From IMG/VR virus record IMGVR_UViG_3300017735_000002: 64,000 bases of DNA; one strand, 5' to 3'. Source of the DNA: a virus. The notes under the pieces are model-generated. The model saw only the letters and a program-made list of their open reading frames with translations. It did not search any database and was not told the origin of the DNA. Position numbers and translations under genes: made by a program. Below are positions 36,985 through 57,978 of the stretch, piece after piece (position 1 is the first letter of the stretch; every line of letters starts with the position of its first letter).

Positions 36985-38265
36985 ATGGAACCATTTGTAC
37001 AAAAACAATTCGATGAATATCAGGCCAATAGGGTTGAGAAAGACATCGTATCAAAAGAAGAACTCAGAGAACTACTGATAAAAGATTTATCATTCGTATC
37101 TAAAATGGGTGTAGCAGAATACACCTTATATCAGAAGTACCAAGAGATACACATGAAGTATCCGACACAAACAGTTTCTACATTGTTTGGCGAAGAGACT
37201 AACTTTGTTAATGAAGACCATTTAAAACTTATCAATGAGACTAAGAACAACATATGGTTTCCTAATTCATACGAAGACTTTGAGAAACTAGAACCAGAAC
37301 TGATTTATACAGACTCGAACAAAGATAGACAGTCTGCTGGTACTCTTACAGAGAAATGGAATTGTCTTAGAACAATGACACACTCACAAAAGAACTCATC
37401 AAACATAGGTAGAAATCTACATTACATTGTTAGAGACAAAGTGACCGAGAAGTATCTTGGTGTTATCTGTATTACAGGTGACTTTATTGACTTAACACCT
37501 AGAGATGATTACATTGGGTGGGAAAGAATATACAAAACGAATAGTGGTAAACTAAACAACAGCGCCATAGGTTCAAGTATTCTACCAACACAACCACTAG
37601 GGTTCAATTACACTGGTGGTAAACTCATGGCATTGTTATGTACTGCCGATGTGATACAGAAACAATGGGAAGAAAACTACGGAGATAAACTAGTCGGTAT
37701 GACTACTACATCTCTCTATGGTAAATCTAAGACAGGTGGGTTATCACAATACGACAGACTCAAACATTGGAAGAAAATGGGATACAGTCAAGGTTCATTA
37801 TCATTTGAAATGACCAAAGAGACTGAAAGAAAGATGCTAGACTATGCAGAACACCATTTCAATGAGAGATACTTCTTATTGTATGTTGCAAAGAGAGAAA
37901 GTGGTCAGACTCTTAAGAGAGACCATAGAAATCGTATGAGACAATTCATGTACTCGCAACTTAAGATACCAAAAGAGTTGCAGAAGTCAGACCATCAAAG
38001 AGGTATCTACTATTCTTGTTTCTATGAAAACACTAGAGAATTTCTTAGAGGTGAGATAGAACAAGACCAATTGATAAGAAACAACAATGATGGTTCAGTC
38101 GAAACACTTACTCAGTTATGGAAAGATAAGTATGCGGCTAAACGAATAAATAACCTCATGAACGCAGAGAGACAAAACTTAACAGAAACATTATTCTATG
38201 ATGATATTGTATCTATGTCATGGGATGAATGTAAACACAAATACTTAGGGGCAGTAGGAAGATGA
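36985..38265 (+). CDS. DUF4338 (DruA-like) domain protein, paralog 2
   Basis: PTQPLGFNYTGGKLMALLC, TTTSLYG. Confidence 0.65.
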   Translation: MEPFVQKQFDEYQANRVEKDIVSKEELRELLIKDLSFVSKMGVAEYTLYQKYQEIHMKYPTQTVSTLFGEETNFVNEDHLKLINETKNNIWFPNSYEDFEKLEPELIYTDSNKDRQSAGTLTEKWNCLRTMTHSQKNSSNIGRNLHYIVRDKVTEKYLGVICITGDFIDLTPRDDYIGWERIYKTNSGKLNNSAIGSSILPTQPLGFNYTGGKLMALLCTADVIQKQWEENYGDKLVGMTTTSLYGKSKTGGLSQYDRLKHWKKMGYSQGSLSFEMTKETERKMLDYAEHHFNERYFLLYVAKRESGQTLKRDHRNRMRQFMYSQLKIPKELQKSDHQRGIYYSCFYENTREFLRGEIEQDQLIRNNNDGSVETLTQLWKDKYAAKRINNLMNAERQNLTETLFYDDIVSMSWDECKHKYLGAVGR

Positions 38266-40261: not shown

Positions 40262-40708
40262 ATGATAAAGAAACAAACAATAATTTTCGATGTTGACGGC
40301 ACTATCGCTGATGTCGAACATAGAAGGCATTTTGTCAATGGTAATAACGATTGGCAGTCTTTTAGAGCAGAAACAGTAAACGATACTCCAGTTCAGTGGG
40401 TATGTGACATTGCAAAAAGATTTATTGCACAAGGTGACCAAGTTGCCTTCTTCAGTGCAAGAAATGAGTCAGAGAGGGAGATTACAGAGAAACAAATTGC
40501 AGAATGGATTGGCGACAATCACCAAGGTTTGTTCTTAAGACCAGATGGCGATTTCAGAAAAGATGATGAATTCAAATCTGAACTTGCAGATAAGTTTGAA
40601 GAATTAGGTGGCAAGATTGATTTAGTCTTTGACGACAGAAATCAAGTTGTCGAAATGTGGAGAAAAAGAGGCACTACAGTTGTCCAAGTTGCAGAAGGAG
40701 ATTTTTAA
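40262..40708 (+). CDS. HAD phosphatase (PseT 3'-phosphatase-like)
   Basis: IFDVDGTIAD, FFSAR, LFLRPDGDFRKD, VFDDRNQVV. Confidence 0.88.
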   Translation: MIKKQTIIFDVDGTIADVEHRRHFVNGNNDWQSFRAETVNDTPVQWVCDIAKRFIAQGDQVAFFSARNESEREITEKQIAEWIGDNHQGLFLRPDGDFRKDDEFKSELADKFEELGGKIDLVFDDRNQVVEMWRKRGTTVVQVAEGDF

Positions 40709-42114: not shown

Positions 42115-42122
42115 TATAAATA
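42115..42122 (+). promoter_or_regulatory. late promoter TATAAATA
   Basis: Exact T4 consensus; further copies ACTAAATA 42302, CATAAATA 42804. Confidence 0.7.
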
Positions 42123-42792: not shown

Positions 42793-42842
42793 CTTTCAAA
42801 ATACATAAATAGTAGTTATACACAACAATGTGATAACTACTT

Positions 42843-44048
42843 ATGGCCGTTAAAAATCTACATTTAGAACATTTAGAAGATGAAATCATCAATAACGGTA
42901 TTGATGGTGGTCGTGCTTCTATAACCTTTCTACTCGCACTCAGAGACATGATGAAAGGAAATGCCAAGAAAAAATTCAACATGACTGTCAAATGGGATGG
43001 TGCACCTGCAATCTTTTGTGGAAAACATCCAGAAGACGGCAGATTCTTTGTCGCAAAGAAATCATTATTCAATAAAGAACCTAAGTTCTATTGTTCAGTA
43101 TCAGAAATTAAGAACGCATCTGAACTATCTGGAGACTTAGAGAAGAAGTTCATAGACTCATTCGAGTATCTATCTAAACTATCCTGGAATAAAGTAATGC
43201 AAGGTGACTTGATGTTTACTCAGGCAGATAAGAAGATGAAGAAAATAAATGATGTAGAACACATTACATTTCAACCTAACACAATCATGTATGCTGTACC
43301 AGTTCAATCAGAATTAGGTAAACAGATTGCAAATGCCAAGTATGGTATAGTATTTCATACGACATACGAGGGTTCAAGTATAGATGATTTGGGCGCCTCA
43401 TTCGGTGCAGATATATCTTCTTTAGGTCATAACAATGATGTATGGATTGATGATGCAACCTTTAAGAATGTTGCAGGTAATTCTACACTCACAGGAAAAG
43501 AAACACTTAAGTTATCTACTCTACTTACTAAAACAGGTAAGTCATTTCATAAAATCAAAAGACCTTCACTGATTAAGTTTATGAAGATACAAGACACCAT
43601 TGCATCTAAAGGTGCAGGTGCAACATACAAAACATACATGAACGCCCAAATAAGAAAGGGTAAGTTCAATCTAAACTATAATGATTATCTTAAACACTTT
43701 GAGAACTATTGGAAAACAAAAGTGGTTGGTGCAGTAAAGATGCAGAAGACAAAAGATATCAAAGAACAAATAGGTAAAGACCTTGTCAGAGATATCAGAA
43801 GTCTTAAACCATTCATAACTGCATTGACAGAGTTTCAAGTAGGCATGGTTGAGGCGAAACAGATTATCATAGATGGTTTAAACAAAGCAAAATCAATCGG
43901 CACATTCGTAAGAACACCCACAGGTTTAAAAGTAGTAAATCCTGAGGGATATGTTGCAATCGATGATGACGGTAAGGCAGTGAAGTTAGTAGACCGTATG
44001 GAGTTCTCACTAAATAACTTTACAGCTGCAAAGGCATGGGACAAATAA
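42843..44048 (+). CDS. conserved T4-like protein (DUF6267-like)
   Basis: NLHLEHLED, TVKWDGAPAIFCG, QGDLMF, EGYVA, VKLVDRMEFS pattern suggests ligase-type nucleotidyltransferase fold. Confidence 0.7.
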   Translation: MAVKNLHLEHLEDEIINNGIDGGRASITFLLALRDMMKGNAKKKFNMTVKWDGAPAIFCGKHPEDGRFFVAKKSLFNKEPKFYCSVSEIKNASELSGDLEKKFIDSFEYLSKLSWNKVMQGDLMFTQADKKMKKINDVEHITFQPNTIMYAVPVQSELGKQIANAKYGIVFHTTYEGSSIDDLGASFGADISSLGHNNDVWIDDATFKNVAGNSTLTGKETLKLSTLLTKTGKSFHKIKRPSLIKFMKIQDTIASKGAGATYKTYMNAQIRKGKFNLNYNDYLKHFENYWKTKVVGAVKMQKTKDIKEQIGKDLVRDIRSLKPFITALTEFQVGMVEAKQIIIDGLNKAKSIGTFVRTPTGLKVVNPEGYVAIDDDGKAVKLVDRMEFSLNNFTAAKAWDK

Positions 44049-45349
44049 TGAAAACATTACAATCATTCATATCAGAGGCGAAACAAAGACCCGCTGTTTT
44101 TTCATTCGGAAGGTTCAACCCACCCACAATTGGGCATGGTAAACTTGTCGATAAACTAAACAAGGTATCAAAGTCAGTAAAAGGCGACCCAATGATATTT
44201 ACTTCTCACTCAAATGATAAGAGAAAAAATCCACTGAATCACAAAACAAAGATTCAGTATCTAAGAAAGTTCTTTTCTAAGAAGGTTGGTGTACCAGATG
44301 CAAACGCCAGAACAGTATTCGATGTCGCAAACGCATTACACAAACAAGGTTATACTAGTATCACTATGGTTGTTGGTTCAGATAGAATCAGAGAATTCGA
44401 AACACTACTTAAGAAATACAATGGTGTAAAGGCAAGACACGGTTTCTATAAGTTCGATGATATAAACATAGTTAGTGCTGGTGAAAGGGATCCAGATGCT
44501 GATGATGTGTCAGGTATGAGTGCATCTAAGATGAGGGCAGCCGCAGAACAAGATGACTTTGATTCATTCAAAGGTGGCGTGCCAGATAAAAAACTCGCAG
44601 ACAAACTATACAAAGATGTGCGTAGAGGTATGGGAATCGCAGAGGAGTCGTTCTCCACTCTACCAGACTACATGATTGAGGACTTACTTAGAGAAGGTGT
44701 ATATGACCCAGGTATCTTTAAGGCAGTATTCTTCATGGGTGGTCCAGGTTCTGGTAAGTCAACAGTAGTAGATGGTTTGGGTTTGAAGGCATTAGGGTTG
44801 AAACTAGTCAATACAGATAAGTCATTTGAGAATGGTCTAAAGAAGGCAGGTCAAACCTTAGACTTAAATGCAGTACCTGCCGATATCAGAGACCCAATTA
44901 GAAAGAAGGCGAAGAGACAAACTACTCGATTGATGGACAGATACATTGACAATAGACTTGGTCTTATCTTCGATACTACAAGTGCAAACGACACTAAGAT
45001 TAAAGCGTATAAGAACATGTTAGATAAACTTGGTTACGAATCTAAAATGGTGTATGTCAGTACATCACTTCCAAACGCATTGGCAAGAAACAGTTCAAGA
45101 CCAAGACAATTACCAGATGCGATTGTTAAGAAAGATTGGAACAATTCACAAAAGAATATTGCATCTATGCAGAAACTATTCAAAAGAGACTTCATGCAAG
45201 TATCAAATGATGATGATTTAGATTCTTTAAAAAGAAAAACTAACTCAGTCTTTGGTAAATTGATGGCATGGTCTACATCATTTCCTGGAAACACCAGAGC
45301 AACACTCTGGAAACAAAGACAACTATTAACAAAGAAATTACATAAATAG
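44048..45349 (+). CDS. cytidyltransferase/NMNAT-like domain fused to P-loop (zeta-toxin/AAA_33-like) kinase
   Basis: FGRFNPPTIGH, VVGSDR, SASKMR; then GGPGSGKST, IFDTT; N-terminus MKTLQSFISE. Confidence 0.85.
   Translation: MKTLQSFISEAKQRPAVFSFGRFNPPTIGHGKLVDKLNKVSKSVKGDPMIFTSHSNDKRKNPLNHKTKIQYLRKFFSKKVGVPDANARTVFDVANALHKQGYTSITMVVGSDRIREFETLLKKYNGVKARHGFYKFDDINIVSAGERDPDADDVSGMSASKMRAAAEQDDFDSFKGGVPDKKLADKLYKDVRRGMGIAEESFSTLPDYMIEDLLREGVYDPGIFKAVFFMGGPGSGKSTVVDGLGLKALGLKLVNTDKSFENGLKKAGQTLDLNAVPADIRDPIRKKAKRQTTRLMDRYIDNRLGLIFDTTSANDTKIKAYKNMLDKLGYESKMVYVSTSLPNALARNSSRPRQLPDAIVKKDWNNSQKNIASMQKLFKRDFMQVSNDDDLDSLKRKTNSVFGKLMAWSTSFPGNTRATLWKQRQLLTKKLHK
45341..45348 (+). promoter_or_regulatory. 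late promoter CATAAATA
   Basis: 5 nt before ATG 45354. Confidence 0.6.
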
Positions 45350-45353
45350 AAGT

Positions 45354-46358
45354 ATGACTACATTATTTAAAAGAATCTTAGAACAAAGAGTTAAACAAGA
45401 CAAAGACATTAAAGATAAAGAAGGTTCACAACCTGCAAAATATCATAGTGGTTTGTCTAAAGACACTAAACAAAAACGAGATGCACACTTTAAGGCAAAG
45501 AAAAGTGGACCTGCACCTGGTGATGATGAAGGTAAGACTAAGAAGTCAGTTCATACTAAGAAGTATGAAAAACAGTTTGGCGAAGAAACCGTGATAGTAG
45601 AAAAGATTACAGGTTTGGTAAACAAGGCAAAGAAATCAGGCATCTCATATGGTATTCTAAAGAAAGTTTACGATAGAGGATTGGCTGCATATAAGACTGG
45701 TCATAGACCTGGTACAACTGCACCACAATGGGCATTTGCCAGAGTGAATAGTTTTATCACTAAAGGTTCAGGCACATGGGGCAAGGCAGACAAAGACCTT
45801 GCAAACAAAGTTAGAGGTGAGTCATTCGTTGCAGACGAAGACTTCACAATGGACGAAGCATGTTGGGATGGTTACAAACAAGTTGGTACAAAAAAGAAAG
45901 GTGGAAAAGTAGTTCCTAATTGTGTGCCAGAAGAGACCGAGATAGAAGAGAACGCAAAAGTCAAAGCAATGTTAAGTAAGATGAAAGGTGTTTCATCTGC
46001 TCAGGCACAATTAATTGCACAAATACCAATACCTGTATTGACTCAAATATCACAGGCATTGGGTCAGTTAGTAATGGGCGAAGATACTGTAGAAGAAGAT
46101 AGAGATTACAAAAAAGAGTATGAGAACTATCAAGGCAAACCAGAACAAATCAAAAGACGAGCTGCAAGAAATTCAGCTAGAAATCAGTTAAAAGACAACA
46201 AAGACATAAAGGGTAAAGATGTTCATCATAAAGATAACAACCCAATGAATAATGATAAATCAAATCTATCAATAGTATCTAAAAACTATAATAGAAAAGA
46301 ACCTAGACTTAGAGAAAGACTAGTAAAACAGGGGATAATTAAAAATGGCAAAAGGTAA
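45354..46358 (+). CDS. mosaic late protein: DUF5824-like modules, CWxGY..PNCVP module, C-terminal HNH
   Basis: QPAKYHSGL, VYDRGLAAY..QWAFARVNSF, ACWDGYKQVG..VPNCVP, DVHHKDNNPMNN..NL..NYN. Confidence 0.75.
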   Translation: MTTLFKRILEQRVKQDKDIKDKEGSQPAKYHSGLSKDTKQKRDAHFKAKKSGPAPGDDEGKTKKSVHTKKYEKQFGEETVIVEKITGLVNKAKKSGISYGILKKVYDRGLAAYKTGHRPGTTAPQWAFARVNSFITKGSGTWGKADKDLANKVRGESFVADEDFTMDEACWDGYKQVGTKKKGGKVVPNCVPEETEIEENAKVKAMLSKMKGVSSAQAQLIAQIPIPVLTQISQALGQLVMGEDTVEEDRDYKKEYENYQGKPEQIKRRAARNSARNQLKDNKDIKGKDVHHKDNNPMNNDKSNLSIVSKNYNRKEPRLRERLVKQGIIKNGKR

Positions 46359-47226
46359 TAAAACAGACAATGGTGTTCATCTAATGGGTACAGATGAAAT
46401 GCTTGCCGCTTACAAGGCAGATACACCAGGTGAATTAGAAACATCTTATACTGAAAATGTAGACAAGATGATTAAGATTCAAGGTAAGAAGAACAAAGAA
46501 GGCAAGAAGAATCATATGTCTATGTTGTTTGATAATCCTTTAAAGGGATATCCTTACAATGAGTCAGTAGAACTAAAAGAACTTGAAGAAGAAATCGATG
46601 CACTGATTCTATCTGAAGCATTATCCAAAAAAATGAATATCCAAAAGTACGCAAAGAAAGTAGGATTTAATTCAGACGAAGTTCAATGGATTATGGACAA
46701 CGAAGATGAAGACCATTACGAAAATAATAGTGCCATGAAAAATGAGTGGAGTGCATTATCATATCCTATCAGAACAGGTGATTACTACTTTGCCTTCATT
46801 GGTGACCGTATGACTGATACCTCTATCACCAAAGCAAATAACAAAATGAATGATGCCATGAGAAAGTATTTTCAAATGGGTCAAAAGAAACTAGAAACAT
46901 TCTATGATGATGATGCAGAATACAGTAAAAAAGATATGCTCGCATCATACATGTGGAATGAAATGTCTCAGATATTTGAAAAACTACCTGCTGGTTTAGG
47001 CGCTGACGATACAATGACACGAGAATGTCTATACACTGCAATTAAACATATGACAGGCGATGGTGAGATTGTATTCGAACATACTACTATGGCAGATGAC
47101 ATAATCAACGAAGGTATGTTTAAGAATCTTGCAAAGGGTATCATGGGTAGAATTAGAAATAAACTTAGAAAAGTTAAAAAGAAAATCAAATTAGGCAAAA
47201 GAGCCAAAGATTTAATGGTGAAGTAA
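46345..47226 (+). CDS. mosaic late protein
   Basis: 293 aa, modules separated by PYNE/ILSE/IVFE/IINE. Confidence 0.75.
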   Translation: MAKGNKTDNGVHLMGTDEMLAAYKADTPGELETSYTENVDKMIKIQGKKNKEGKKNHMSMLFDNPLKGYPYNESVELKELEEEIDALILSEALSKKMNIQKYAKKVGFNSDEVQWIMDNEDEDHYENNSAMKNEWSALSYPIRTGDYYFAFIGDRMTDTSITKANNKMNDAMRKYFQMGQKKLETFYDDDAEYSKKDMLASYMWNEMSQIFEKLPAGLGADDTMTRECLYTAIKHMTGDGEIVFEHTTMADDIINEGMFKNLAKGIMGRIRNKLRKVKKKIKLGKRAKDLMVK

Positions 47227-47633
47227 TGATTAAGGATTTCAAGTCTTTATTCGAAGAAGAATCTACACCAGAAGTCATTTCTGAGGTAGACTCTATACAA
47301 ACTAGAATGAAGAAACGCAGAGCAATGCGTAAGAACAAAGCGAAGATTGCCTTTGCACGAAAGAAGGCAATGAAGAGAAAGATTCTAGACCCAAAGAAAC
47401 TTATGAAGAGGGCACAAAAACAAGCTCGAAGTAAGATTGCCTCAAGAATTCTAAAAGGTAAAAACAAAGCAGAATTGGGTATGGGTCAAAAGAGGGCTCT
47501 AGAAAAGATACTCGATAAGAAAACAAAAGCAATATCTAAACTTGCCAAGAAGATGTTGAAAGTCGTAAGACAAAAAGAAATGAACAAAGGCAAAAAGACA
47601 TTAAAAGATATTGCACCAGGTAACGCAAAATGA
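47226..47633 (+). CDS. highly basic late protein
   Basis: N-terminus MIKDFKSLFEE, VISE, then Lys/Arg-rich helices. Confidence 0.75.
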   Translation: MIKDFKSLFEEESTPEVISEVDSIQTRMKKRRAMRKNKAKIAFARKKAMKRKILDPKKLMKRAQKQARSKIASRILKGKNKAELGMGQKRALEKILDKKTKAISKLAKKMLKVVRQKEMNKGKKTLKDIAPGNAK

Positions 47634-48175
47634 AGATAAACACATTCAAGGGCATGGCAATCGATGACACATTGAGAGACTTGCAGATGACAGAAACAAA
47701 TCTATTAGATAATCCATTCAGACTAGGTTCAATGATGTACTTTGAAGTAATCAAAGAGGCAAAAAAACTAGTTGCAGAAGGAAGATACAATCTTACAGAG
47801 ATAGATAAACAAGTCTTAGAAACAAACTTAGGTGAGTATGATATCTATGAGAATGAACTTGTACCTCTAGATTGTCCTATGATGGAGATGAACGAAGAAG
47901 AAGATAAAGATGTTGCAATAGGTAAACCTAAAGCAGGCGGGCCTAAGAAGTTCTATGTCTATGTTAAAGACGGTGACAAGACAAAGAAAGTCACATTCGG
48001 AGATACATCAGGTCTATCAGTAAAATTTAAAGACCCTAAGGCAAGAGCATCATATGTCGCAAGACATAATTGTGATACTGCAAATGATAAAACCACACCA
48101 GGATATTGGTCATGTAGACTACCAAGATACGCAAAACAACTTGGTCTGAGTGGTGGTGGTTCATTTTTCTGGTAA
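47630..48175 (+). CDS. two-module late protein
   Basis: NPFRLGS module; after EMNEEE a KKFYVYVK..VTFGD..RHNC..GYWSC module. Confidence 0.75.
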   Translation: MKINTFKGMAIDDTLRDLQMTETNLLDNPFRLGSMMYFEVIKEAKKLVAEGRYNLTEIDKQVLETNLGEYDIYENELVPLDCPMMEMNEEEDKDVAIGKPKAGGPKKFYVYVKDGDKTKKVTFGDTSGLSVKFKDPKARASYVARHNCDTANDKTTPGYWSCRLPRYAKQLGLSGGGSFFW

Positions 48176-48197
48176 AAAATAACACCTAAATATTTGT

Positions 48198-48479
48198 ATG
48201 AAACCATACAGAGAACGAATAGAAGAACAACATGGTACAGGTCGAGAGTTCATATATCGAACATTCGAACCAAATATACTAGATGACGAACTCGTTTGGC
48301 ACAGAGATAAAAAGAATCGATGTGTACATGTATTAAGTGGAAGTGGTTGGCAATTACAATTAGATGACAAATTGCCTAAAGATTTAACAATAGGATTAGA
48401 TTACTACATACCCAAGATGACTTATCATAGAGTCATTAAAGGTACTAGTGACCTAGTCGTAAGGATTGAGAACATATAA
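48198..48479 (+). CDS. cupin-like protein
   Basis: ELVWHRD, GSGWQLQLD, IPKMTYHRVIKG; CCTAAATA 5 nt upstream. Confidence 0.75.
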   Translation: MKPYRERIEEQHGTGREFIYRTFEPNILDDELVWHRDKKNRCVHVLSGSGWQLQLDDKLPKDLTIGLDYYIPKMTYHRVIKGTSDLVVRIENI

Positions 48480-48490
48480 ATAACTATATC

Positions 48491-48856
48491 ATGGAAAACA
48501 AAACTTGGAAAGATAAACTAGAAGAAGTAAGAGGTTTTAACAAGACCGAAACTTCTCCAGCAATTATAGATGAGAAATTAACATCTGATGAAATCGAGGA
48601 AATGCTTAAAGAAGAGTTCAAAGAACTTGCAGAGGGCGAAAAGACGGCAGTGGAGTCACTCGAAGAAAAACGAGACAGACTCAAAGAAGAACTCGCACAC
48701 ATAGAAGAAGAGATTGCTACATCTAATGAGTCAGTTGAAAAAACCATAGAAAAATTAACAGAAAGAAATATGCTTGGCAGACTTGCTAAGTCTTTAAAAC
48801 TTAATGAAACTGGTAAACAGAAGATGTTTGACTATTTCGAACAAGGGGAACTATAA
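48491..48856 (+). CDS. acidic coiled-coil late protein
   Basis: TATAAATA at 48475; Glu-rich helices. Confidence 0.75.
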   Translation: MENKTWKDKLEEVRGFNKTETSPAIIDEKLTSDEIEEMLKEEFKELAEGEKTAVESLEEKRDRLKEELAHIEEEIATSNESVEKTIEKLTERNMLGRLAKSLKLNETGKQKMFDYFEQGEL

Positions 48857-49620
48857 TGAAATTAACAGATAAGGGTGTATCAGACCAATTAGTTGCTGAT
48901 ATGAGAACCATGTTAGAGGGTCATCTATCAGAAGAACCGTTTAATGCAAATGCAGCTCTAAAGAAACAAAGAATCAAGGGTATGCAAGACAAACTCGAAA
49001 ATCTAAGAACACAAAGACAACGAGCTGATGATTCTGCTAAACAGGCAAGAGACCAAGGTAGAGATGACGCCGCTGATGACCACGAACATAAGGGCGATAG
49101 AATTAACAACAATATCAGAGACCTTAAGGCAAAGATAAGAGATGAGATGAATGAAGACAACACCAATGACAAGTCAGACGATGGTGAAGGTCTAGATAAA
49201 GTTAAAAAAGATGCAGTTAAGAAGAAGTTTGCAGACCGTAAAGACAAAGACATTGACAATGATGGCGACACTGATTCTTCAGACGAATATCTTCATAAGA
49301 AAAGACAGGCAATCTCCAAGAAAATGGATGAGGGCGAATTACCACCTGCATTGAAAAAGGCAATCGATAAGAAGAAAGGTGAAGACGATGAAGAAGAAGT
49401 CGAAGAAGGAAAATTACCACCTGCTCTTCAGAAAGCAATAGACAAGAAGAAAGGTAAAGATACAGACGATGATGAGAAAGAAGTCGAAGAGGGCAAAGAC
49501 AAAATCAAATATCGTGGTAATCTAAAAGATTTGAAGGCAATGAAAGAAGACTTCATGATAATCATAGAGAAGTACGGATTAGACCAAGTTAAGACTATTA
49601 TCAATTCAATCGAGAAATAA
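48856..49620 (+). CDS. charged low-complexity late protein (prohead-core-like)
   Basis: DKDIDNDGDTDSSD loop; tandem EGxLPPALxKAIDKKKG. Confidence 0.75.
   Translation: MKLTDKGVSDQLVADMRTMLEGHLSEEPFNANAALKKQRIKGMQDKLENLRTQRQRADDSAKQARDQGRDDAADDHEHKGDRINNNIRDLKAKIRDEMNEDNTNDKSDDGEGLDKVKKDAVKKKFADRKDKDIDNDGDTDSSDEYLHKKRQAISKKMDEGELPPALKKAIDKKKGEDDEEEVEEGKLPPALQKAIDKKKGKDTDDDEKEVEEGKDKIKYRGNLKDLKAMKEDFMIIIEKYGLDQVKTIINSIEK
49330..49456 (+). repeat. diverged tandem coding repeat
   Basis: EGELPPALKKAIDKKKG and EGKLPPALQKAIDKKKG with synonymous divergence. Confidence 0.8.
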
Positions 49621-49621
49621 C

Positions 49622-51100
49622 ATGAATCTGTTTCAAGAGGCAAAGTCAGTTTTAGACAAGGACGGTAAAGTAAATCCTTTAGGTCCTTACGGCAAACAAA
49701 AACTCACAGGTAGAGAAACATCTGCCTATTTTCGTAGAAACAAAGTAAAACCAGGCGATATCAAGAAAGCAGTAGAAGTTGCACTTGACCTTGGTGGTGC
49801 AGATACTATTGCAAGACAAGAAATTAAAAAGTTCTTTGGTGATAAGATTCTTAAATCAAAAGAAGTTCAAAACGCATTACAATACGCAAACGAAGAGACA
49901 TTCAGAGATGACCTTAACAATTTAGATGAGGGTTCATTCTATGGTAGAGATGACTTAGTTAAACAATTTGCTACACCCAAAAATAAAAAACACCTCTTTG
50001 TAAAATTAAGAAAGACTGATTCTAAAGGCACACATGGTGTCAGTATGGCAAAAAAGGGCAACGAGAAGAAGATTGCTGATTATAAAAGACAAGGGTACAA
50101 AGAAGTACCAGTAGAATCTGTAGAAGAGGGTTTCAAACCTTACAATGACAAACAGTATCCTAGATGTGTAGACTTCTACATTCAGTTTAGAGGTGGTAAA
50201 GGAGACAGAATCACTTCGCCAGAAAATAAGAAAGATTTTGAAACTGCAAAGAAGATGATTGATACATATTGCAGAACAAACAAAATCAAACAGAAACCAG
50301 TTTACTCAACACCTGAAGAGGGTTCAAGTGCATACAAAGTCGGTCTTATGATTGACAGTACTTACAGTAAAACATCTGATTATAAAGACGGCAAAGACTT
50401 GCAACCTTTATATGTATCATTAAGTAAACTAAAGACCGCAGAAGACCACGGTGGTGGTTGGAGTCAAGCAGTAATTAAAGAAGAAACAGATTTAACAGAG
50501 AACTATAGAAAACTCGCACAACATGGTATGGGTGCAGAGGGTAAGAAAGATATCAAAACTGGTACAGGTGTAGATTTCTATGAACCTAAACAAGGTAATA
50601 AGAGACAAGGTAAAGTCACTAAGATGACTGCTACTGGTTACTCAGTTAAAGATGAGAAAGATGGTAAAACATATACATTTATGTACCACGACAGAATGAA
50701 GGCAAAGAAACTTCTTCAGAAGAAAGATAAACTATCTAACATCATTAAGAAGAACACCATCCAGAAAGGTAAGTTCGCTGGATACATGACTGATTCAGTA
50801 GAAGAGGCACAACAAGGTGCAAGACAGTCTATTATGGACACATATAGAAATATATGGGAAGAAGACTTACAAGAAGAGATGATTACTTACAGAGTTAAGA
50901 AGATGCATCCTGCTGAAAAGAAAAAGTTCGAACAGTCAGGAAAGATGATGGGTCTAAAAGTCACCATGAATACTAACAAACAAGATACATTAGTTGTTAT
51001 GAGTGGCACTAAGAAGAAACTCAGAGACTTCGACTCAGTTGCAAGAGGTAAATCATCATATGGTGATCCTTCAACAGTATCACACTTTGACGAGAAGTAA
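49622..51100 (+). CDS. multi-module late protein
   Basis: 492 aa; junctions LFQE, YANE, NLDE, SVEE, VIKE, DLTE, SVEE, DLQE. Confidence 0.8.
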   Translation: MNLFQEAKSVLDKDGKVNPLGPYGKQKLTGRETSAYFRRNKVKPGDIKKAVEVALDLGGADTIARQEIKKFFGDKILKSKEVQNALQYANEETFRDDLNNLDEGSFYGRDDLVKQFATPKNKKHLFVKLRKTDSKGTHGVSMAKKGNEKKIADYKRQGYKEVPVESVEEGFKPYNDKQYPRCVDFYIQFRGGKGDRITSPENKKDFETAKKMIDTYCRTNKIKQKPVYSTPEEGSSAYKVGLMIDSTYSKTSDYKDGKDLQPLYVSLSKLKTAEDHGGGWSQAVIKEETDLTENYRKLAQHGMGAEGKKDIKTGTGVDFYEPKQGNKRQGKVTKMTATGYSVKDEKDGKTYTFMYHDRMKAKKLLQKKDKLSNIIKKNTIQKGKFAGYMTDSVEEAQQGARQSIMDTYRNIWEEDLQEEMITYRVKKMHPAEKKKFEQSGKMMGLKVTMNTNKQDTLVVMSGTKKKLRDFDSVARGKSSYGDPSTVSHFDEK

Positions 51101-51101
51101 T

Positions 51102-51428
51102 ATGACATATAAAAGTCTAGTACAAGTAATTAAAGAACACAATGATGGCAAAGAAGAAATCATTGAAAGAATAAACTTTCATGGGAAAAGTCCTGCTGAG
51201 AAAAAGGGTTCAGAGTTCAATAGAAAACAAGAAATCAATGGTTATAAAAAGATTTTAAAGACTATTGAAAAGATTAACAAAGACCACGAGAAGTTTCAAT
51301 ATAACAATCGTGCAGACGGACCATCTAATATATTTAAAGGTCTACAACAAGTTGAAAGAACATGCTATGACTTGATACGAGAAATTGAACAAGGCAAATG
51401 GGATGGTAAAGTGGACTTAGAAGAATAA
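51102..51428 (+). CDS. late hypothetical protein
   Basis: Start moved to ATG 51102: MTYKSLVQVIKE. Confidence 0.7.
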   Translation: MTYKSLVQVIKEHNDGKEEIIERINFHGKSPAEKKGSEFNRKQEINGYKKILKTIEKINKDHEKFQYNNRADGPSNIFKGLQQVERTCYDLIREIEQGKWDGKVDLEE

Positions 51429-51988
51429 TGGAAAAAGTAGACGCCAGAACAAGAATGTTTAAAGAAAAGTTGAAGAGACTCAACTATAAAAAACATATTA
51501 CAGATGCAATTGAGGCATCATCAAATGTCAAACAAGTAATGGAAAAGATTGCTGACTTTGGTATGATGTCAGATGCAGGTAATAAAAAAATTGCTCGTGC
51601 TGTTGCACAATCTAAGAACGAGAAAGATTTAAGAGCAAAATTAGATAAAATATCTAAAATGGCAAAGGGTAAGTATGCAGAGGCAGAAGAGGATGAAGTC
51701 TTCAATCGTGCCATGGATGCAATGCAATCGAAGGCAACTGGTGTACAGAATAGACCAGATGCAACGATGTTAATACAACTTCGTAAATTCAAAGATGGAA
51801 CCAAAGATGGTGAAGTTAGAACAGATGATATGAAGAAGATTAAAGTAAAAAATGCAGATGCAGTCAAAGTTCATGACACTTTAATGAAGGTTCGAGCACC
51901 AATTCGAACTAAATACTTACAACTATTACAAAAAGACAAAAACACTTTTAGTAAAACATTTAATGCAATCTTAAAGGTTGCGAAATAG
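51428..51988 (+). CDS. late hypothetical protein
   Basis: MEKVDARTRMFKEKL.. basic/helical; TAATG overlap. Confidence 0.75.
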   Translation: MEKVDARTRMFKEKLKRLNYKKHITDAIEASSNVKQVMEKIADFGMMSDAGNKKIARAVAQSKNEKDLRAKLDKISKMAKGKYAEAEEDEVFNRAMDAMQSKATGVQNRPDATMLIQLRKFKDGTKDGEVRTDDMKKIKVKNADAVKVHDTLMKVRAPIRTKYLQLLQKDKNTFSKTFNAILKVAK

Positions 51989-51997
51989 GAGAATAAA

Positions 51998-52543
51998 ATG
52001 GCATTATGGGGAATTTCAGATGCAGACGAATCGAAACCTAAGTGGTTAAACGATGCAGATAAGAAGAAAGTTTACGCTGACGCTAGTGGTTGGAGATTTG
52101 AAAACCCTAAAAGTGGCGCAACAGATGAAGTCTTATGTGCAGTAAGTGGACTTGCAGTTTCAATTGGTTCTGCTGATATTACAGAAATAGAATTTATTTC
52201 AACAGCATTTGATAAATCAGCGGGTGGAACATTATCCGTACGAGTTAGATTTAACGAGGCAGTTGCAGTCACAGGCACACCACAACTTACAGTTGTAAAT
52301 GACCAAAGAGCAAATCATGTATTATCATACGCAAGTGGTACAGGTTCTAACGAACTAGTATTCAGTCTTGTAATTGGTGCAGCTAACGCTGCTACAAATG
52401 CAGGTGATGTTCTAAGTATTGGTGCAAATGCAATGGCATTAAACAGTGGTACTGTAAAAGATAACGGTACTTCTACAAACGCAACTATTACCAATATCGC
52501 AGGAATTGGTACTGCTGCTGGTACAATTACAGTAGTTGCATAG
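51998..52543 (+). CDS. virion structural protein with Ig-like domain
   Basis: MALWG N-terminus; VRVRFNEAVAVTGTPQL, YASGTGSNELVF Ig-like strands; Ala/Gly/Thr-rich. Confidence 0.7.
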   Translation: MALWGISDADESKPKWLNDADKKKVYADASGWRFENPKSGATDEVLCAVSGLAVSIGSADITEIEFISTAFDKSAGGTLSVRVRFNEAVAVTGTPQLTVVNDQRANHVLSYASGTGSNELVFSLVIGAANAATNAGDVLSIGANAMALNSGTVKDNGTSTNATITNIAGIGTAAGTITVVA

Positions 52544-52552
52544 TAGAAGACT

Positions 52553-52780
52553 ATGGCATATGTAGTCGTTCCAGGTTCGAATAATTTATGGCAGTATGAT
52601 AATGCTGCCGTAAAATCTGATTCAGATACTTACAACGAATCAAATGGTACGGTTGCAAACGGCATTAGAACATTCACTACACCAGGTGGTAATGTCGAAA
52701 GGGTCTACATTAAGTGTAGAAAAGTTGGTGAAACAATAGTTCGTGGTGAGTTGAATAAAAACTACTACGATGCACAATAG
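52553..52780 (+). CDS. hypothetical protein
   Basis: 75 aa; VPGSNNLWQYDN. Confidence 0.7.
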   Translation: MAYVVVPGSNNLWQYDNAAVKSDSDTYNESNGTVANGIRTFTTPGGNVERVYIKCRKVGETIVRGELNKNYYDAQ

Positions 52781-52788
52781 GAAAAATT

Positions 52789-53208
52789 ATGAAATCATTT
52801 AACGAATATTTAATTGAAAATTTAGGTGGGGACTTTGGTTTAGACTCAACAGTACCTTACGACATAGATTCCCAGGCAGTTAAGAACAAACTTAATGCAG
52901 TTTTGGGTCATGTTGCAGTGTCAGAGTTTATGAATCCTCTCGCCGCTATTCAACAAATGGAATCAAAACTCTCTCAAATGGGTCTACATAAGAAAGTTCA
53001 AGTAGAAGGACATGGTGTAGTACAAGATGAAGAGTTCTCAGGTTCAGGTGAATTAAACTTAGAGTTTACTCAATTTGGTGGGGTGTTTGGTAAATCAGTA
53101 GATACACCTATCGATGAGATTGAGAAAGAAGAAAGAAACATTTCTCTCAAAGTTAAATATGAACAGTTAGAAACTGGTTCATTCAAAGTTTACGGTTCAA
53201 TCGTTTAA
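52789..53208 (+). CDS. late protein with internal-protein-like N-terminus
   Basis: MKSFNEYLIE; QFGGVFGK. Confidence 0.75.
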   Translation: MKSFNEYLIENLGGDFGLDSTVPYDIDSQAVKNKLNAVLGHVAVSEFMNPLAAIQQMESKLSQMGLHKKVQVEGHGVVQDEEFSGSGELNLEFTQFGGVFGKSVDTPIDEIEKEERNISLKVKYEQLETGSFKVYGSIV

Positions 53209-53265
53209 ACTTCTTTAGTTGAGTCTACTAAATACTAGTAGACACAACAACTAAACAATTATATT

Positions 53266-53637
53266 ATGGGTCTATTTGACAAAATCACAGCAAAAAACTT
53301 TAACGCATACGCACATAAGCATTATGATGACCCCCAATGTGAAGACATTGAGGACTTTAATGAAGACTTGCGTAGGTTTAGATATCTAAAACGACTACTT
53401 CATCGTTACCATGAGAATGGTGAATTAAGAGAACGCCTCATGTTGAATCATATTATATGTTTATTCAATGTGTTTGGATTTGAGGCATGTATGAGAATGT
53501 TGCAGTTTAAGATTAAAGAAGAAGAACATTGGTCATCTATAAAGACTATGTTGTTATATCTTGAACTCATACAAGAAGGTTGGTTGATAAACTACCCTAT
53601 AGATGATAAACTTGCACAACGATTGAGAGAACTGTAG
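53266..53637 (+). CDS. conserved T4-like hypothetical protein
   Basis: HYDDPQC..DFNEDLRRFRYLKRLL..LNHIICLFNVFG; ACTAAATA at 53227. Confidence 0.75.
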   Translation: MGLFDKITAKNFNAYAHKHYDDPQCEDIEDFNEDLRRFRYLKRLLHRYHENGELRERLMLNHIICLFNVFGFEACMRMLQFKIKEEEHWSSIKTMLLYLELIQEGWLINYPIDDKLAQRLREL

Positions 53638-53662
53638 TCATTCAGATTGCATAAATAGATAT

Positions 53663-54292
53663 ATGGTCGGAAGAGTAATAGACAGTTTAATCGTATTCAG
53701 GATTCTTAAGATGTTGACAACACCTTTTGAGAAGACACCTGCCTACAAGTTTGGGTTCATTGACCAGAATGGTGTAAGAGTCAAGTTCATAACAGACCCA
53801 GAAAATAAGAATCAAAAACTTGCAAACAACCCCAAGACAAAAGAAGAGAAGAACTCTCTCACACCTTTACATAGATTAGTATTCAATCTAAAGAAACTAA
53901 TTAGAAAAGTGCCTGGTGGTAAGTCACAATTGGCATCATATGCAGTTGCACTTGGTTTACTCAAAGAACATACTAACTTAGATTCAGAACAGGCAGACCA
54001 GTTGTATGAAGACTTTTATAGATTACTGAAAGACGAAGATGCATTTCAACCAGAGATGATTGAAGAGGCACAAGACATTGGTAAACTATGTTCTCTAAAA
54101 ATGCATGGTTCTGATTATCATCTAAGAACTCAAATCAAACAGAACTTTGATGAGAATGAAGAAATCAAAATATATCCAGAAAAATCAACAGTCACCAATG
54201 TTGCAGAACATAGTATAGGTTATGGTGTACTAATATATGAGGGGTACATAGGGGAAGATAGAGTCCTGTTTACCGCAGAAGATGTATATTAA
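53663..54292 (+). CDS. conserved T4-like protein (gp61.1-like N-terminus)
   Basis: FRILKMLTTPFEKTPAYKFGFIDQNG, TPLHRLVFNLKKL; CATAAATA 5 nt upstream. Confidence 0.65.
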   Translation: MVGRVIDSLIVFRILKMLTTPFEKTPAYKFGFIDQNGVRVKFITDPENKNQKLANNPKTKEEKNSLTPLHRLVFNLKKLIRKVPGGKSQLASYAVALGLLKEHTNLDSEQADQLYEDFYRLLKDEDAFQPEMIEEAQDIGKLCSLKMHGSDYHLRTQIKQNFDENEEIKIYPEKSTVTNVAEHSIGYGVLIYEGYIGEDRVLFTAEDVY

Positions 54293-56087
54293 CGAAGTAC
54301 TATATCATATTGATGAAGACTACAAACAATATTGTGATGCAATAGACTCCATATGTGAAGAACTTCTAGTTGAAGAAGACAAGAAGAAAGATGCATGGTT
54401 CTTCGACATGTCTACAGATAAACAACAAGACTATCTCAAGTCACATCCAGATTCAGACAAGGCAAAAGAACTCAAAAGAAAACTACAATCAATGCCCAAA
54501 AAGGGCGACCAAGGTGATACGAGACCGGCACCGGATAAAAAATCTCCGAAGGGGAATGTAGCGAAGACAAATCCCGACAAGGACGCCACACCTTCTGAGA
54601 AACCTAAGAACGATGTTGGTGGTTCATTACCAACTCAAGTTGCAGACTTAAAACAACACATTGGTGAATTAAAAGATGCAATAGGTTTAGATATCGCAAC
54701 GATTGGTAAGGCATTTAAAGAACCTTCAGTATACAATACAGTCAAGGCGATTGGTGGTTCAATAACTGCAACATCTAAGACCATAATGGGTTCACTTAGA
54801 ACTGTGGGTAAGACTCTTACAGTAGGGGGTGCCGCTATACATGACACTAAGGCATTCCAACAGTTAGAAAAGGGTCTAATTAAAACAGATGAGTTCATGC
54901 AGAAAAACAAAGTACTCGCAACTATGAGTGCTGTTGGTGTATCTAGTCTCGCAATTGCACAATGGTTAAGAATGTCATTCTCGGGTGATATAGAATCTGA
55001 TTTTGACTTGACTATTATACCTGCCGCCTTTGCAGGTAACGCTGGGTTCGCAGACTTGATTGCAACGCCAGATGGTATCAAAGGTATTGGTTTATTGAGT
55101 GCTGGTATGGCAACAGGTGGTCTACCTATATGGATGGGTGGTCCTGTTGGTCTTGCAATGGCATTAACATATTCAGGTTTAGTCAGTGCAGGTGATACAA
55201 AGAAAGGCGCTGAGATTAAAAAGAAAATGGTCGATTGGGCAGATAGTATGAGGTCATCAACTGGTGATGTACTGAGAAAAGTTGACAAGAAACTTGGTCT
55301 AACAACAGAGTCATTGATGAATCCATCGAACATAGATAAACTTCAATTCAATGTATTTGAGAAACTAAAGAAACCCAAATATCACAAAGTAGAGATATTT
55401 GAAGATGGTTGGTCAGAAATAGAAATGATGCCCCCACCTACAAATAGTTCTAAAACAACTAAGTCAGAATTAGAAACAGTCATCAAAGAGTCAAACAACG
55501 CAACAGATGACATCAAAAAGAAATACATCAATTGTGCCGATGACCCATGTTATTATATCAAAGAATACATGGAAGACTCAGACTTAGAGTTTGATGAAGA
55601 GTATATGGATTACATCGTAGACCAATGTACACCAGTAATCAGACACTTTAAAAATTCATTCAACAGACCTAGACCATATCAAGTTGCAGAAGCACTTAAT
55701 ATGAAACTTAACAAATGGAAAACAGGAACTGCAAACTCTCCTTCATATCCATCAGGTCATTCAATGCAACCATATCTGGTTGCAAACTTCTATGCAGAGA
55801 AATATCCAGAACATGAGGGTAATCTTAGAGATGCCGCTGATATATGTGCATATGGAAGAGTTCAAGCTGGGTTGCATTACCCAACAGATTATAACGCAGG
55901 TATACAACTTGCAGATGAAATGGCAAAGTATCTTAAAGATGACTTAAAAGAAGATGCGCCAGTGAACGCTACAGGTAGTGCTGTATCAACAGACACACCT
56001 TTAGTAAGAAGTAGAAACAAGTATCTCAAAAAGAACAAAGAAGATTCTAAGAAGATTTTCGGTCTTTTAAAAAGATACTCTAAGTAA
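54282..56087 (+). CDS. mosaic protein: Gly/Ala-rich hydrophobic domain + PAP2/haloperoxidase-family phosphatase
   Basis: KNSFNRPRP, PSYPSGHS, GRVQAGLHYPTD PAP2 motifs; hydrophobic GLLSAGMATGGLPIWMGGPVGLAMAL. Confidence 0.82.
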   Translation: MYINEVLYHIDEDYKQYCDAIDSICEELLVEEDKKKDAWFFDMSTDKQQDYLKSHPDSDKAKELKRKLQSMPKKGDQGDTRPAPDKKSPKGNVAKTNPDKDATPSEKPKNDVGGSLPTQVADLKQHIGELKDAIGLDIATIGKAFKEPSVYNTVKAIGGSITATSKTIMGSLRTVGKTLTVGGAAIHDTKAFQQLEKGLIKTDEFMQKNKVLATMSAVGVSSLAIAQWLRMSFSGDIESDFDLTIIPAAFAGNAGFADLIATPDGIKGIGLLSAGMATGGLPIWMGGPVGLAMALTYSGLVSAGDTKKGAEIKKKMVDWADSMRSSTGDVLRKVDKKLGLTTESLMNPSNIDKLQFNVFEKLKKPKYHKVEIFEDGWSEIEMMPPPTNSSKTTKSELETVIKESNNATDDIKKKYINCADDPCYYIKEYMEDSDLEFDEEYMDYIVDQCTPVIRHFKNSFNRPRPYQVAEALNMKLNKWKTGTANSPSYPSGHSMQPYLVANFYAEKYPEHEGNLRDAADICAYGRVQAGLHYPTDYNAGIQLADEMAKYLKDDLKEDAPVNATGSAVSTDTPLVRSRNKYLKKNKEDSKKIFGLLKRYSK

Positions 56088-56943: not shown

Positions 56944-57978
56944 ATGTTATGGTTAGAGCGAAAATACTTGTCGATGGTCATGGTCTACTTAGACCGTGCC
57001 AAATGGACAAACGAGAATACGATGAATCACAGGTGCAATTACTGTGGTGATTCGCAAAAGAATGTATATAAGGCACGAGGGTTTCACTTCGTCAAAGAAC
57101 AATCATTCATCTTCAAATGCCATAACTGTGGTAAGTCAACATCTTCGATAAACTTTATCAAAGACCATTGGCCATCAGTTCACAAAGAATATCTGAAAGA
57201 ATTTCTATCAGAAAAAGGTATGAAACCTAAAAGAAAAATGCCATCGGCGAACGCTTTTAAGTTCACCCCACGAACAGATAATCTAAATAAAACTGTGGTT
57301 GAAAAAGAAAACAGTCTCAAGGCAATCGCCTTTCCTGTTCTCGAAAAGGCAATCGCAAAGAACTATCTCTTAGATAGAAAAATACCAGAATCTTCAATGA
57401 CTGATTTATGGTTCGTATCATCGGCACAAACTCTTAGTATGTTGTCAGATAAGTATAGAGATAGAGTATTGGGTAAAGACCCAAGAATAATATTGCCATT
57501 CTATGACGAGAGTGGTGAATTGATTGGTGTATCAGGTCGTGCTATTAACGACTCACCATTGAGATACATGACCATGAGATTCAGAGATGATGTGCCGCTC
57601 ATCTTCAATCTTAATAAAGTGGACAAGACTAAGACAATCTATGTCACAGAGGGACCCATAGATAGTCTATTCCTACCGAATAGTATCGCAGTAGCGGGTA
57701 GTGATTTTAAAAAGATACAAGATGATATAAAAGATAACGCAATACTAATATATGATAACGAACCAAGAAACGCCGAGATAATCAAAAAGATAGAAGAGGT
57801 CATTGACCTCGGGTACAAGGTGTGTATCTGGAACGATAGAAGAATAGAAGATTGCAAAGACATAAATGATATGATTATTAAAGGTTTGAGTGAAAGTGAG
57901 ATTATCGAAATCATCAATCGTAATACAGTTTACGGTCTCTCAGCAAAATTACAATTGATGGAGTATAAGAAAATATGA
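56944..57978 (+). CDS. gp61: DNA primase gp61
   Basis: Zn finger RCNYCGDS..CHNCG; RIILPF; TOPRIM VTEGPIDS, YDNEPRN. Confidence 0.95.
   Translation: MLWLERKYLSMVMVYLDRAKWTNENTMNHRCNYCGDSQKNVYKARGFHFVKEQSFIFKCHNCGKSTSSINFIKDHWPSVHKEYLKEFLSEKGMKPKRKMPSANAFKFTPRTDNLNKTVVEKENSLKAIAFPVLEKAIAKNYLLDRKIPESSMTDLWFVSSAQTLSMLSDKYRDRVLGKDPRIILPFYDESGELIGVSGRAINDSPLRYMTMRFRDDVPLIFNLNKVDKTKTIYVTEGPIDSLFLPNSIAVAGSDFKKIQDDIKDNAILIYDNEPRNAEIIKKIEEVIDLGYKVCIWNDRRIEDCKDINDMIIKGLSESEIIEIINRNTVYGLSAKLQLMEYKKI

Follow-up and report, generated by a model that had tools for sequence, protein, structure and literature searches.

We found that a block of genes at positions 42843-56087 of a 64,000-nucleotide stretch of viral DNA (the window; IMG/VR virus record IMGVR_UViG_3300017735_000002; genes are named by their first position) is probably where a marine T4-like myophage encodes its late-transcribed cargo. 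Of the proteins encoded there, at least four (44048, 47226, 48198 and 52789) appear to carry an N-terminal 10-residue capsid-targeting sequence (CTS) homologous to that of the T4 internal proteins (IPs) IPI, IPII and IPIII. In the mechanism that we propose, the leader would dock the protein on the gp22 scaffolding core during prohead formation, and the gp21 (S77) protease would then cut after hydrophobic-x-Glu, removing the leader. The same protease probably cuts the same motif in linkers between modules, which would yield separate enzymes and Lys-rich peptides within the head. These products would remain beside the phage DNA and pass into the host together with it. Targeting and packaging by the leader are very likely, given the sequence statistics and the published virion proteomes of orthologs, and comparative patterns make removal of the leader by cleavage after Glu10 quite likely. 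Cutting at the internal junctions, that is, polyprotein processing, is fairly probable from such patterns because the motif is enriched, sits in predicted linkers and precedes shuffled cassettes. We infer binding to the core and, by analogy with the T4 IPs and Alt, injection into the host as well as the biochemical roles of the cargo.

DNA and protein searches identified the source as an uncultured marine T4-like myophage. Methylophilales phage Melnitz and Pelagibacter phage HTVC008M are its closest isolates; cyanomyoviruses come next, and all of these belong to the Kyanoviridae. The IMG/VR record is a 114-kb contig with an estimated completeness of 63%, and all genes of the window are on the + strand, with a G+C content of about 36%. 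The block falls between a gp41-type helicase gene (35594-36982) and a gp61-type primase gene (56944-57978) with nrdA, an interval that is syntenic with Melnitz, HTVC008M and cyanophages. An earlier sequence-only reading of this DNA, which had proposed packaged and cleaved cargo, noted as a caveat that gp21 was absent from the window. This is resolved, since the gp21-type protease (Peptidase_S77, PF03420, E 1.9e-38) is encoded about 5 kb before the first base of the window. The genes for a T4-type portal and a gp22-type scaffold (T4_CASP, E 1.7e-66) flank the gp21 gene, also outside the window.

Leader sequences

In the T4 leader, positions 4 and 7 serve targeting and positions 8 and 10 serve processing (PMC9026906). 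In the T4 record NC_000866, ipII and ipIII begin MKTYQEFIAEA, and ipI begins MKTFKEF. N-termini of 139 genes were scored without gaps against the ipII/ipIII leader of this record, with 33,542 internal 10-mers of the phage genome as background (maximum 27). The N-terminus of open reading frame (ORF) 44048 scored 34, above every internal 10-mer. ORFs 52789 and 48198 came next with 21, a score that is reached by 1.2e-4 of the internal 10-mers. The N-terminus of the gp21 protease ranked fourth, after these three block genes; T4 gp21 likewise bears such a leader-type site. ORF 47226 qualifies through its homologs, which start MKSFKEFCE, VKTFFDFLEE and MKKFSELTSELIE. The four leader-bearing genes have the following features, in which a slash marks a candidate cut and pLDDT is the predicted local distance difference test value of AlphaFold2 (AF2).

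44048-44077, + strand: CTS-like leader MKTLQSFISE with a predicted gp21 cut after Glu10 (score 34; pLDDT below 50 at residues 1-9)
44048-45349, + strand: HIGH-motif nucleotidyltransferase (residues ~16-194) and P-loop kinase (~225-433); PHROG cytidyltransferase E 1.8e-62, AAA_33 4.6e-10, Zeta_toxin 1.5e-8
47226-47633, + strand: small, very basic protein with leader MIKDFKSLFE/E (135 amino acids, isoelectric point (pI) 10.9, 25% Lys)
48198-48479, + strand: 93-residue protein with CTS-like leader MKPYRERIEE/Q (score 21); homologs start VKPYTEQVLE
52789-53208, + strand: 139-residue protein with CTS-like leader MKSFNEYLIE/N (score 21), a variable spacer and a conserved domain

The leader is conserved among relatives. 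The consensus of 120 homologs of ORF 44048 is MKT[LFY]xxF[ILM]xEAK. In 37 aligned homologs, K2, F7, E10 and K12 are invariant and A11 is found in 36, with L, F or Y at position 4, I, L or M at position 8 and no constraint at positions 5, 6 and 9. The conserved positions 4, 7, 8 and 10 are the functional positions of T4, and this holds over about 160 homologs. The family of 52789 was searched with one representative per 50%-identity cluster. Its distinct N-termini match M[KR]x[FLY]xxx[ILVMFT]xE in 33 of 42 cases, with the consensus MK[ST]FK[QE][YHF][IL]xE, and the information falls from 2-4 bits in the leader to about 1 bit right after Glu10. Up to five genes in each of nine related genomes bear a leader with a score of at least 16. 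The series starts with the gene 5' of the ligase-like gene and stays inside the gp41-gp61 block; genes further upstream reached borderline scores of 14-15 only. Cyanophage leaders are similar: the cytidylyltransferases begin MKKFSAFLTE or MKKFSAFLNE, and PSSM7_194 begins MKTYSQFIEE. By these sequence comparisons, three leaders (44048, 52789 and 48198), together with that of 47226 via its homologs, are true look-alikes of the T4 CTS, and they keep this form in hundreds of relatives.

The sequence-only reading had listed six leaders and twelve internal junction strings, all of which are present in the ORFs concerned. As T4-like leaders, those of 44048 and 52789 stand, and 48198 is to be added. 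However, the other four of the six, MTTLFKRILE, MNLFQE, MTYKSLVQVIKE and MIKDFKSLFEE (47226), are not outstanding by the T4-leader score. The N-termini of 45354, 49622, 51102 and 54282 are not of the T4 type, and the block genes 51998, 52553, 53266 and 53663 have no leader, so the claim that the whole 12-kb block is packaged cargo holds only in part.

Orthologs in published virion proteomes

The idea of packaging is supported by mass spectrometry of purified cyanomyovirus virions, which detected orthologs of several block proteins, the nucleotidyltransferase among them. ORF 44048 is an ortholog of the S-SM1 virion protein SSM1_190 (E 3e-52). In purified S-SM1 virions this cytidylyltransferase (T4-GC190) gave 25 peptide counts, similar to gp6 and gp22 (Sullivan et al. 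2010, PMC3037559 Table S8). Six proteins of the S-SM1 gp41-gp61 block were detected in virions, namely GC1453, GC190, GC1454, GC1455, GC425 and GC426, and GC425 gave 17 peptide counts (PMC3037559). GC119 was detected as well, and its P-SSM7 member carries a near-T4 leader (PMC3037559). The cytidylyltransferase was also found in virions of S-SZBM1 (PMC9146016) and of S-CREM2, whose authors suggest encapsidation (PMC10665884).

The S-SM1, S-SZBM1 and S-CREM2 proteome papers give no packaging mechanism (PMC3037559, PMC9146016, PMC10665884). Leader-based targeting would offer a mechanism for the repeated, unexplained presence of the cytidylyltransferase and other non-structural proteins in cyanomyovirus virions. 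In the literature we found no paper that ties a CTS to cyanophages or pelagiphages, nor to these proteins.

One further block gene belongs to a family of virion proteins.

51998-52543, + strand: virion protein of the 'S-layer domain' family (T4-GC425), no leader (E 3e-24 to PSSM7_196, 3e-22 to SSM1_195)

Other pairings with cyanophage virion proteins found no sequence support. ORF 53663 has no sequence similarity to GC426 despite the same position, and 45354 has none to GC119. A segment resembling the DNDGD-SSD-YL segment of 48856 was seen in the S-SM1 virion protein SSM1_191 by eye only; BLAST was not significant, though short motifs recur.

Internal sites and module shuffling

If gp21 cuts the cargo internally, its motif may be expected at the junctions of modules. 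Enrichment was measured by shuffling within each protein. In the block, [LIVMF]-x-E occurs at 1.40x expectation (z 4.3) and [LI]-x-E at 1.62x, whereas the controls [LIVMF]E and [LIVMF]xxE are flat at 1.02x. Elsewhere in the genome, [LIVMF]-x-E reaches 1.34x in the head-core genes and 1.11x in other non-structural genes, which are mostly for replication and metabolism. The worry of the sequence-only reading that Glu is simply common in these proteins is resolved: Glu is not elevated (7.2% in the block versus 6.9% elsewhere). The modular proteins and their candidate sites are as follows.

44630-44719, + strand: inter-domain linker of 44048, residues 195-224, with candidate cuts GIAE199/E and LLRE216/G (low pLDDT, conserved P3 and P1)
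45354-46358, + strand: string of small modules (DUF5824 E 9.2e-21; HNH_3 E 1.3e-4, below cut-off)
46345-47226, + strand: modular protein with IINE256/G near its basic C-terminal tail
47630-48175, + strand: two-part module protein (LDNPF and KKFYVYV parts), homologs of which start MKTLKEV and MKTFKEL
48856-49620, + strand: acidic and basic repeat protein with TMLE21/G, EMNE100/D, KMDE159/G and two EVEE/G before LPPALxKAID repeats
49622-51100, + strand: cassette protein, with N module 1-103, NLDE103/G, cassette 104-169, SVEE169/G, cassette 170-293, DLTE293/N, NYR module 294-395, SVEE395/A and a C-terminal module
54282-56087, + strand: Gly/Ala-rich hydrophobic N half and PAP2 phosphatase domain (PAP2 E 1.1e-7, above cut-off)

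In 54282, DLKE557/D fits the motif and LTTE343/S is weak, with Thr at P3. Apart from LTTE/S, the junction strings described previously fit hydrophobic-x-Glu.

In the linker of 44048, the 37 aligned homologs all keep I197, E199 and E216 and have I or L at position 214, whereas the two P2 positions differ among them. The AF2 model has a mean pLDDT of 51-53 for residues 201-220, falling below 50 at residues 200-203, and four of its five motif sites lie in the leader or the linker. In HTVC008M the kinase is a gene of its own starting MIPFILKE/GLYDPG; in the window protein it is fused after DLLRE/GVYDPG. In Melnitz gp18, the nucleotidyltransferase, the DUF5824 part of 45354 and, at the C-terminus, the 47630 module are joined in one chain.

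Shuffling is also seen in the family of 49622. Between the same flanking modules, the length of the differing cassettes in its relatives is 0, about 80, about 180 or more than 400 residues. The motif stands within 5-14 residues after the shared N module in all 28 distinct sequences, and identical cassettes follow it despite different P3 and P2 residues. Of 24 distinct contexts of the NYRxLAxxGMG module, 23 have [ILVM]-x-E in front of it. In the AF2 model of 49622, low-pLDDT segments form 34% of the chain and contain eight of the ten motif sites; the model has no match to any solved structure.

Module boundaries with the motif also occur in other families. In 45354 the order is a leader (RILE10/), the Lys-rich DUF5824 N part, VIVE83/ and the DUF5824 core, TMDE168/A and a Cys-knuckle, a helical module, and TVEE248/ with an HNH-like end, and these modules are spread over different genes in relatives. 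In this family the motif stands upstream of the DUF5824 N part in 19 of 23 distinct contexts, of the DUF5824 core in 16 of 16 and of the Cys-knuckle in 15 of 18. In one gene a full leader, MKTFQDYLEE, immediately precedes the Cys-knuckle, a module that elsewhere stands behind an internal site. Six longer proteins of the 52789 family have [VILM]-x-E/DGYSQ before the domain (6/6); all start with a CTS-like sequence, five with the exact 10-residue pattern and P0381 (MKSLKEFVLSE) with a one-residue insertion. A related locus also contains the DNDGD-SSD-YL segment of 48856; there, all contexts of the KKLDPVGK module that were examined have [LIVMF]xE in front of it. In all, ten different modules directly follow the motif, each in contexts that are often unrelated. 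The expectation that modules of aligned homologs swap at hydrophobic-x-Glu sites was thus confirmed.

Homology breakpoints were tested first in nine genomes. Because other Glu patterns were also enriched there, the test was repeated on 240 homologs with a narrower range around the breakpoint and complemented by the explicit module contexts given above. Within four residues of the breakpoints in the 240 homologs, the motif occurs at 2.2-2.4x expectation. At breakpoints of the 49622 family, Glu without a hydrophobic P3 occurs at 1.0x.

We lean slightly towards a wider reading, in which the T4-like myophages that abound in the ocean (pelagimyophages, methylophages and cyanomyoviruses) share a combinatorial ejected-protein system: a conserved 10-residue T4-type address label would be set on strings of small cassettes, each bounded by a prohead-protease site, and the cassettes would be released as individual enzymes and DNA-binding peptides and delivered with the genome. 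Since the cassettes would be bounded by cut sites, recombination could add, drop or swap them.

Alternative explanations

Several observations weigh against the proposed cargo system or its internal cleavage. Besides the enrichment of other Glu-containing patterns in the nine-genome test, P3 specificity at breakpoints is weak in the 45354 family, and the motif is missing at the HTVC008M DUF5824 junction, in the common SSEETS/VKQDKD context, at NPLKG and at LTTE. It could also travel with each module as part of the module fold. NadR and CoA synthase each work with a nucleotidyltransferase and a kinase fused in one polypeptide, and function therefore does not depend on cutting. As for the virion data, the S-CREM2 authors allow that co-purifying abundant proteins caused detection (PMC10665884), and the cytidylyltransferase was not detected in the S-PM2 and Syn9 virion proteomes (PMC3037559).

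The alternative that survives best is that the proteins are targeted by the leader and lose it, but then stay intact as multi-domain proteins. Hydrophobic-x-Glu at the boundaries would then be a by-product of linker composition or a part of the module folds. The fused enzymes named above, to which ATP sulfurylase-APS kinase can be added, function uncut, and the junctions that lack the motif and the other enriched Glu patterns would suit this explanation. However, the enrichment is specific to P3 across the whole block with flat controls, patterns without the hydrophobic residue are not enriched at the breakpoints of the 49622 family, and ten unrelated modules share the preceding motif with a variable P2. 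T4 gp21, moreover, cuts every accessible site of this kind in core proteins. We therefore regard intact cargo as unlikely.

It is very unlikely that the block encodes scaffold- or core-like assembly proteins, comparable to gp22, gp67 and gp68, that are degraded in maturation and mostly leave the head instead of being delivered as effectors. Such a role would be in keeping with Lys-rich, partly disordered and repeat-rich sequences, with the similar motif enrichment of the head-core genes and with the fate of T4 core proteins, which end as small peptides. However, the block encodes intact enzyme domains (nucleotidyltransferase, kinase and PAP2), orthologs were recovered from mature virions with many peptides, and the genome has a separate gp22-type scaffold. 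The last alternative, that these are ordinary cytoplasmic phage enzymes or accessory proteins whose starts resemble the T4 leader by chance, being Lys-rich and AT-rich, was already disfavoured and is extremely improbable: the block does lie within the replication module, AT-rich phages often have MK starts and two virion proteomes lack the cytidylyltransferase, but elsewhere in the genome such a start is seen in gp21 only, the conserved positions are those that matter in T4 and end at Glu10, and an ortholog was found in three independent virion proteomes.

The CTS/gp21 cargo system with cassette polyproteins is thus the explanation that we consider probable.

Comparison with known systems

The closest known relative is the T4 IP system. 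Both have a 10-residue leader (T4 MKTYQEFIAE and MKTFKEF...; here MKTLQSFISE and MKSFNEYLIE; in relatives MKTFKEFYEE and MKTYSQFIEE) that ends in hydrophobic-x-Glu, an S77 protease and a gp22-type scaffold encoded in the genome, putative late expression signals, different cargo behind a shared leader and, here in 47226, one small very basic member. The present phage is Kyanoviridae-like whereas T4 belongs to the Straboviridae, its locus is in the replication module between gp41 and gp61, and large enzymes and multi-cassette proteins with candidate sites inside them are part of its putative cargo. T4 Alt, a packaged ADP-ribosyltransferase that gp21 cuts at both ends, is another head-packed enzyme that is trimmed by the protease, injected and early-acting, as is proposed here. 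Alt differs in its enzymology, lacks an IP-type leader and is one domain, not a string of cassettes.

The gp21-like protease of giant phages cuts after x-Glu motifs. In phiKZ, 201phi2-1 and SPN3US, this T4-like prohead protease processes many proteins from inside the head, the ejection and inner-body proteins, which are delivered into the cell (PMC5694885, PMC7411985). A shared 10-residue leader is not known from these phages, and in this unrelated phage group propeptides are removed instead of cassettes being separated.

Polyvalent proteins also combine several effector domains in one polypeptide, with predicted capsid packing, delivery with the DNA and rampant domain shuffling (Iyer et al. 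2017, PMC5512222). The block has the multi-module architecture with shuffling and the late promoter motifs that suit the definition of this class (2-15 effector domains, late or packaging context). However, polyvalent proteins carry their own peptidase or anchor domains, whereas the junctions here match the motif of the phage's prohead protease and the modules are much smaller. The signature domains (MPTase/zincin peptidase and MuF) had no Pfam, PHROG or NCBIfam match in any block protein. The cyanomyovirus virion cytidylyltransferases of S-SM1, S-SZBM1 and S-CREM2 have an orthologous nucleotidyltransferase domain at the same genomic position, but with an extra module between leader and enzyme and without a fused kinase.

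What is new in the system proposed here is that T4-type CTS/gp21 packaging would operate in a different phage family, from a different place in the genome, and on cargo that includes enzymes and proteins built of cassettes. The T4 leader is conserved in marine Kyanoviridae-like phages as well as in the Straboviridae. It may provide a simple sequence rule to predict which proteins uncultured ocean myophages deliver into SAR11, OM43 and picocyanobacterial cells. If the combinatorial reading is true, the injected proteome of uncultured phages would be readable from sequence via the leader. If the internal sites are real, cargo would evolve as cassettes are exchanged at protease sites, and early host-takeover or counter-defence functions could be diversified in a compact way. 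The leader may also be a ready-made tag to load foreign proteins into these phages.

Late-promoter motifs

The several late promoters of the sequence-only reading are matched by late-promoter-like motifs. The exact sequence TATAAATA was too strict as a probe, with just two sites near the block, so the search used ATAAATA, the 7-mer at the core of T4 late promoters. In the whole genome there are 34 sites on the coding strand versus 5 on the other, and a gp55-type late sigma factor gene is present at 2526-3068. Sites lie within the block at 45342, 48476 and 53651 and just upstream of it at 42116 and 42805.

42805-42811, + strand: late-promoter-like ATAAATA, 31 nucleotides 5' of the ligase-like gene
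45342-45348, + strand: late-promoter-like ATAAATA, 5 nucleotides 5' of the 45354 ATG
48476-48482, + strand: late-promoter-like TATAAATA, 8 nucleotides 5' of the 48491 ATG
53651-53657, + strand: late-promoter-like ATAAATA, 5 nucleotides 5' of the 53663 ATG

The site at 42805 probably drives 42843 and the translationally coupled 44048. In 11 genes of the genome, ATAAATA lies 5 nucleotides (in two cases 7-8) 5' of the ATG. Seven of these are in the window, with sites at 5844, 15634, 33488, 42116, 45342, 48476 and 53651, and the ATAAATA-N5-ATG arrangement also occurs in relatives (L015, L018 and L019). By analogy with a T4-type late promoter, such transcripts would begin at or beside the start codon and would be leaderless late mRNAs without a Shine-Dalgarno sequence.

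Putative cargo domains and neighbouring genes

Of the cargo named earlier, the nucleotidyltransferase, the kinase and the PAP2 phosphatase were recovered by domain search, but the HNH domain stayed below the Pfam threshold. In ORF 44048 the HIGH-motif nucleotidyltransferase is followed by the P-loop kinase, as in NadR. The AF2 model compared with Foldseek resembles NadR, parts of CoA synthase and ATP sulfurylase-APS kinase about equally: NadR chains gave E of about 4e-5, ATP sulfurylase-APS kinase and PPAT with dephospho-CoA kinase were equally good, and PSTK was alike. By sequence, the protein fell short of the NadR cut-offs of NCBIfam (nadR_NMN_Atrans 16 bits versus a cut-off of 341; PRK08887 20.5 versus 164). 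Since Foldseek favours no single enzyme and the NadR cut-offs were missed, no substrate was assigned. PDB sequence searches with 44048 and 42843 gave no match, and scans of Pfam- and PHROG-type libraries gave no family match for 46345. ORF 53266 belongs to the DUF7207 family. In a related locus (L007) the PAP2 part is a separate gene of 261 amino acids, which starts MFIEE at the same boundary as in 54282.

Lys is doubled in the block proteins (12.6%, compared with 6.2% elsewhere in the genome). Many of these proteins have a pI of 9.4-10.9, and in six it is above 9.4. The high Lys content and pI recall DNA-associated internal proteins, among which 47226 is, by analogy, the block's closest counterpart of the T4 internal proteins.

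The first gene of the block encodes a ligase-like protein.

42843-44048, + strand: DUF6267 ligase-like protein with a KxDG motif (Pfam E 3.1e-98; pI 9.4), no leader

Among its orthologs, that of Melnitz has a longer N-terminal extension ending in hydrophobic-x-Glu (ITE), and that of HTVC008M has a short one ending in LVE. A PNKP-type HAD phosphatase (PF25109, E 2.1e-28) is encoded at 40262-40708, close to this gene and to the PNK-like P-loop kinase of 44048. The HAD phosphatase, the KxDG ligase-like protein and the P-loop kinase could form a set for repair of RNA or other nucleic-acid ends instead of one for cofactor synthesis.

In relatives (L015, L017/L018 and L019), Pfam marks on the contigs place a DruA-family (PF14236) protein directly 3' of gp41. 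The corresponding positions of the window are 36985-38265 (and 27017-28141); an NCBIfam scan gave no match for ORF 36985. In S-PM2 (L010, 3821-5600), the DUF6267 homolog is split: p138 is the N half, and p139, annotated 'cytitidyltransferase', has the DUF6267 C half at its start, fused to the transferase domain.

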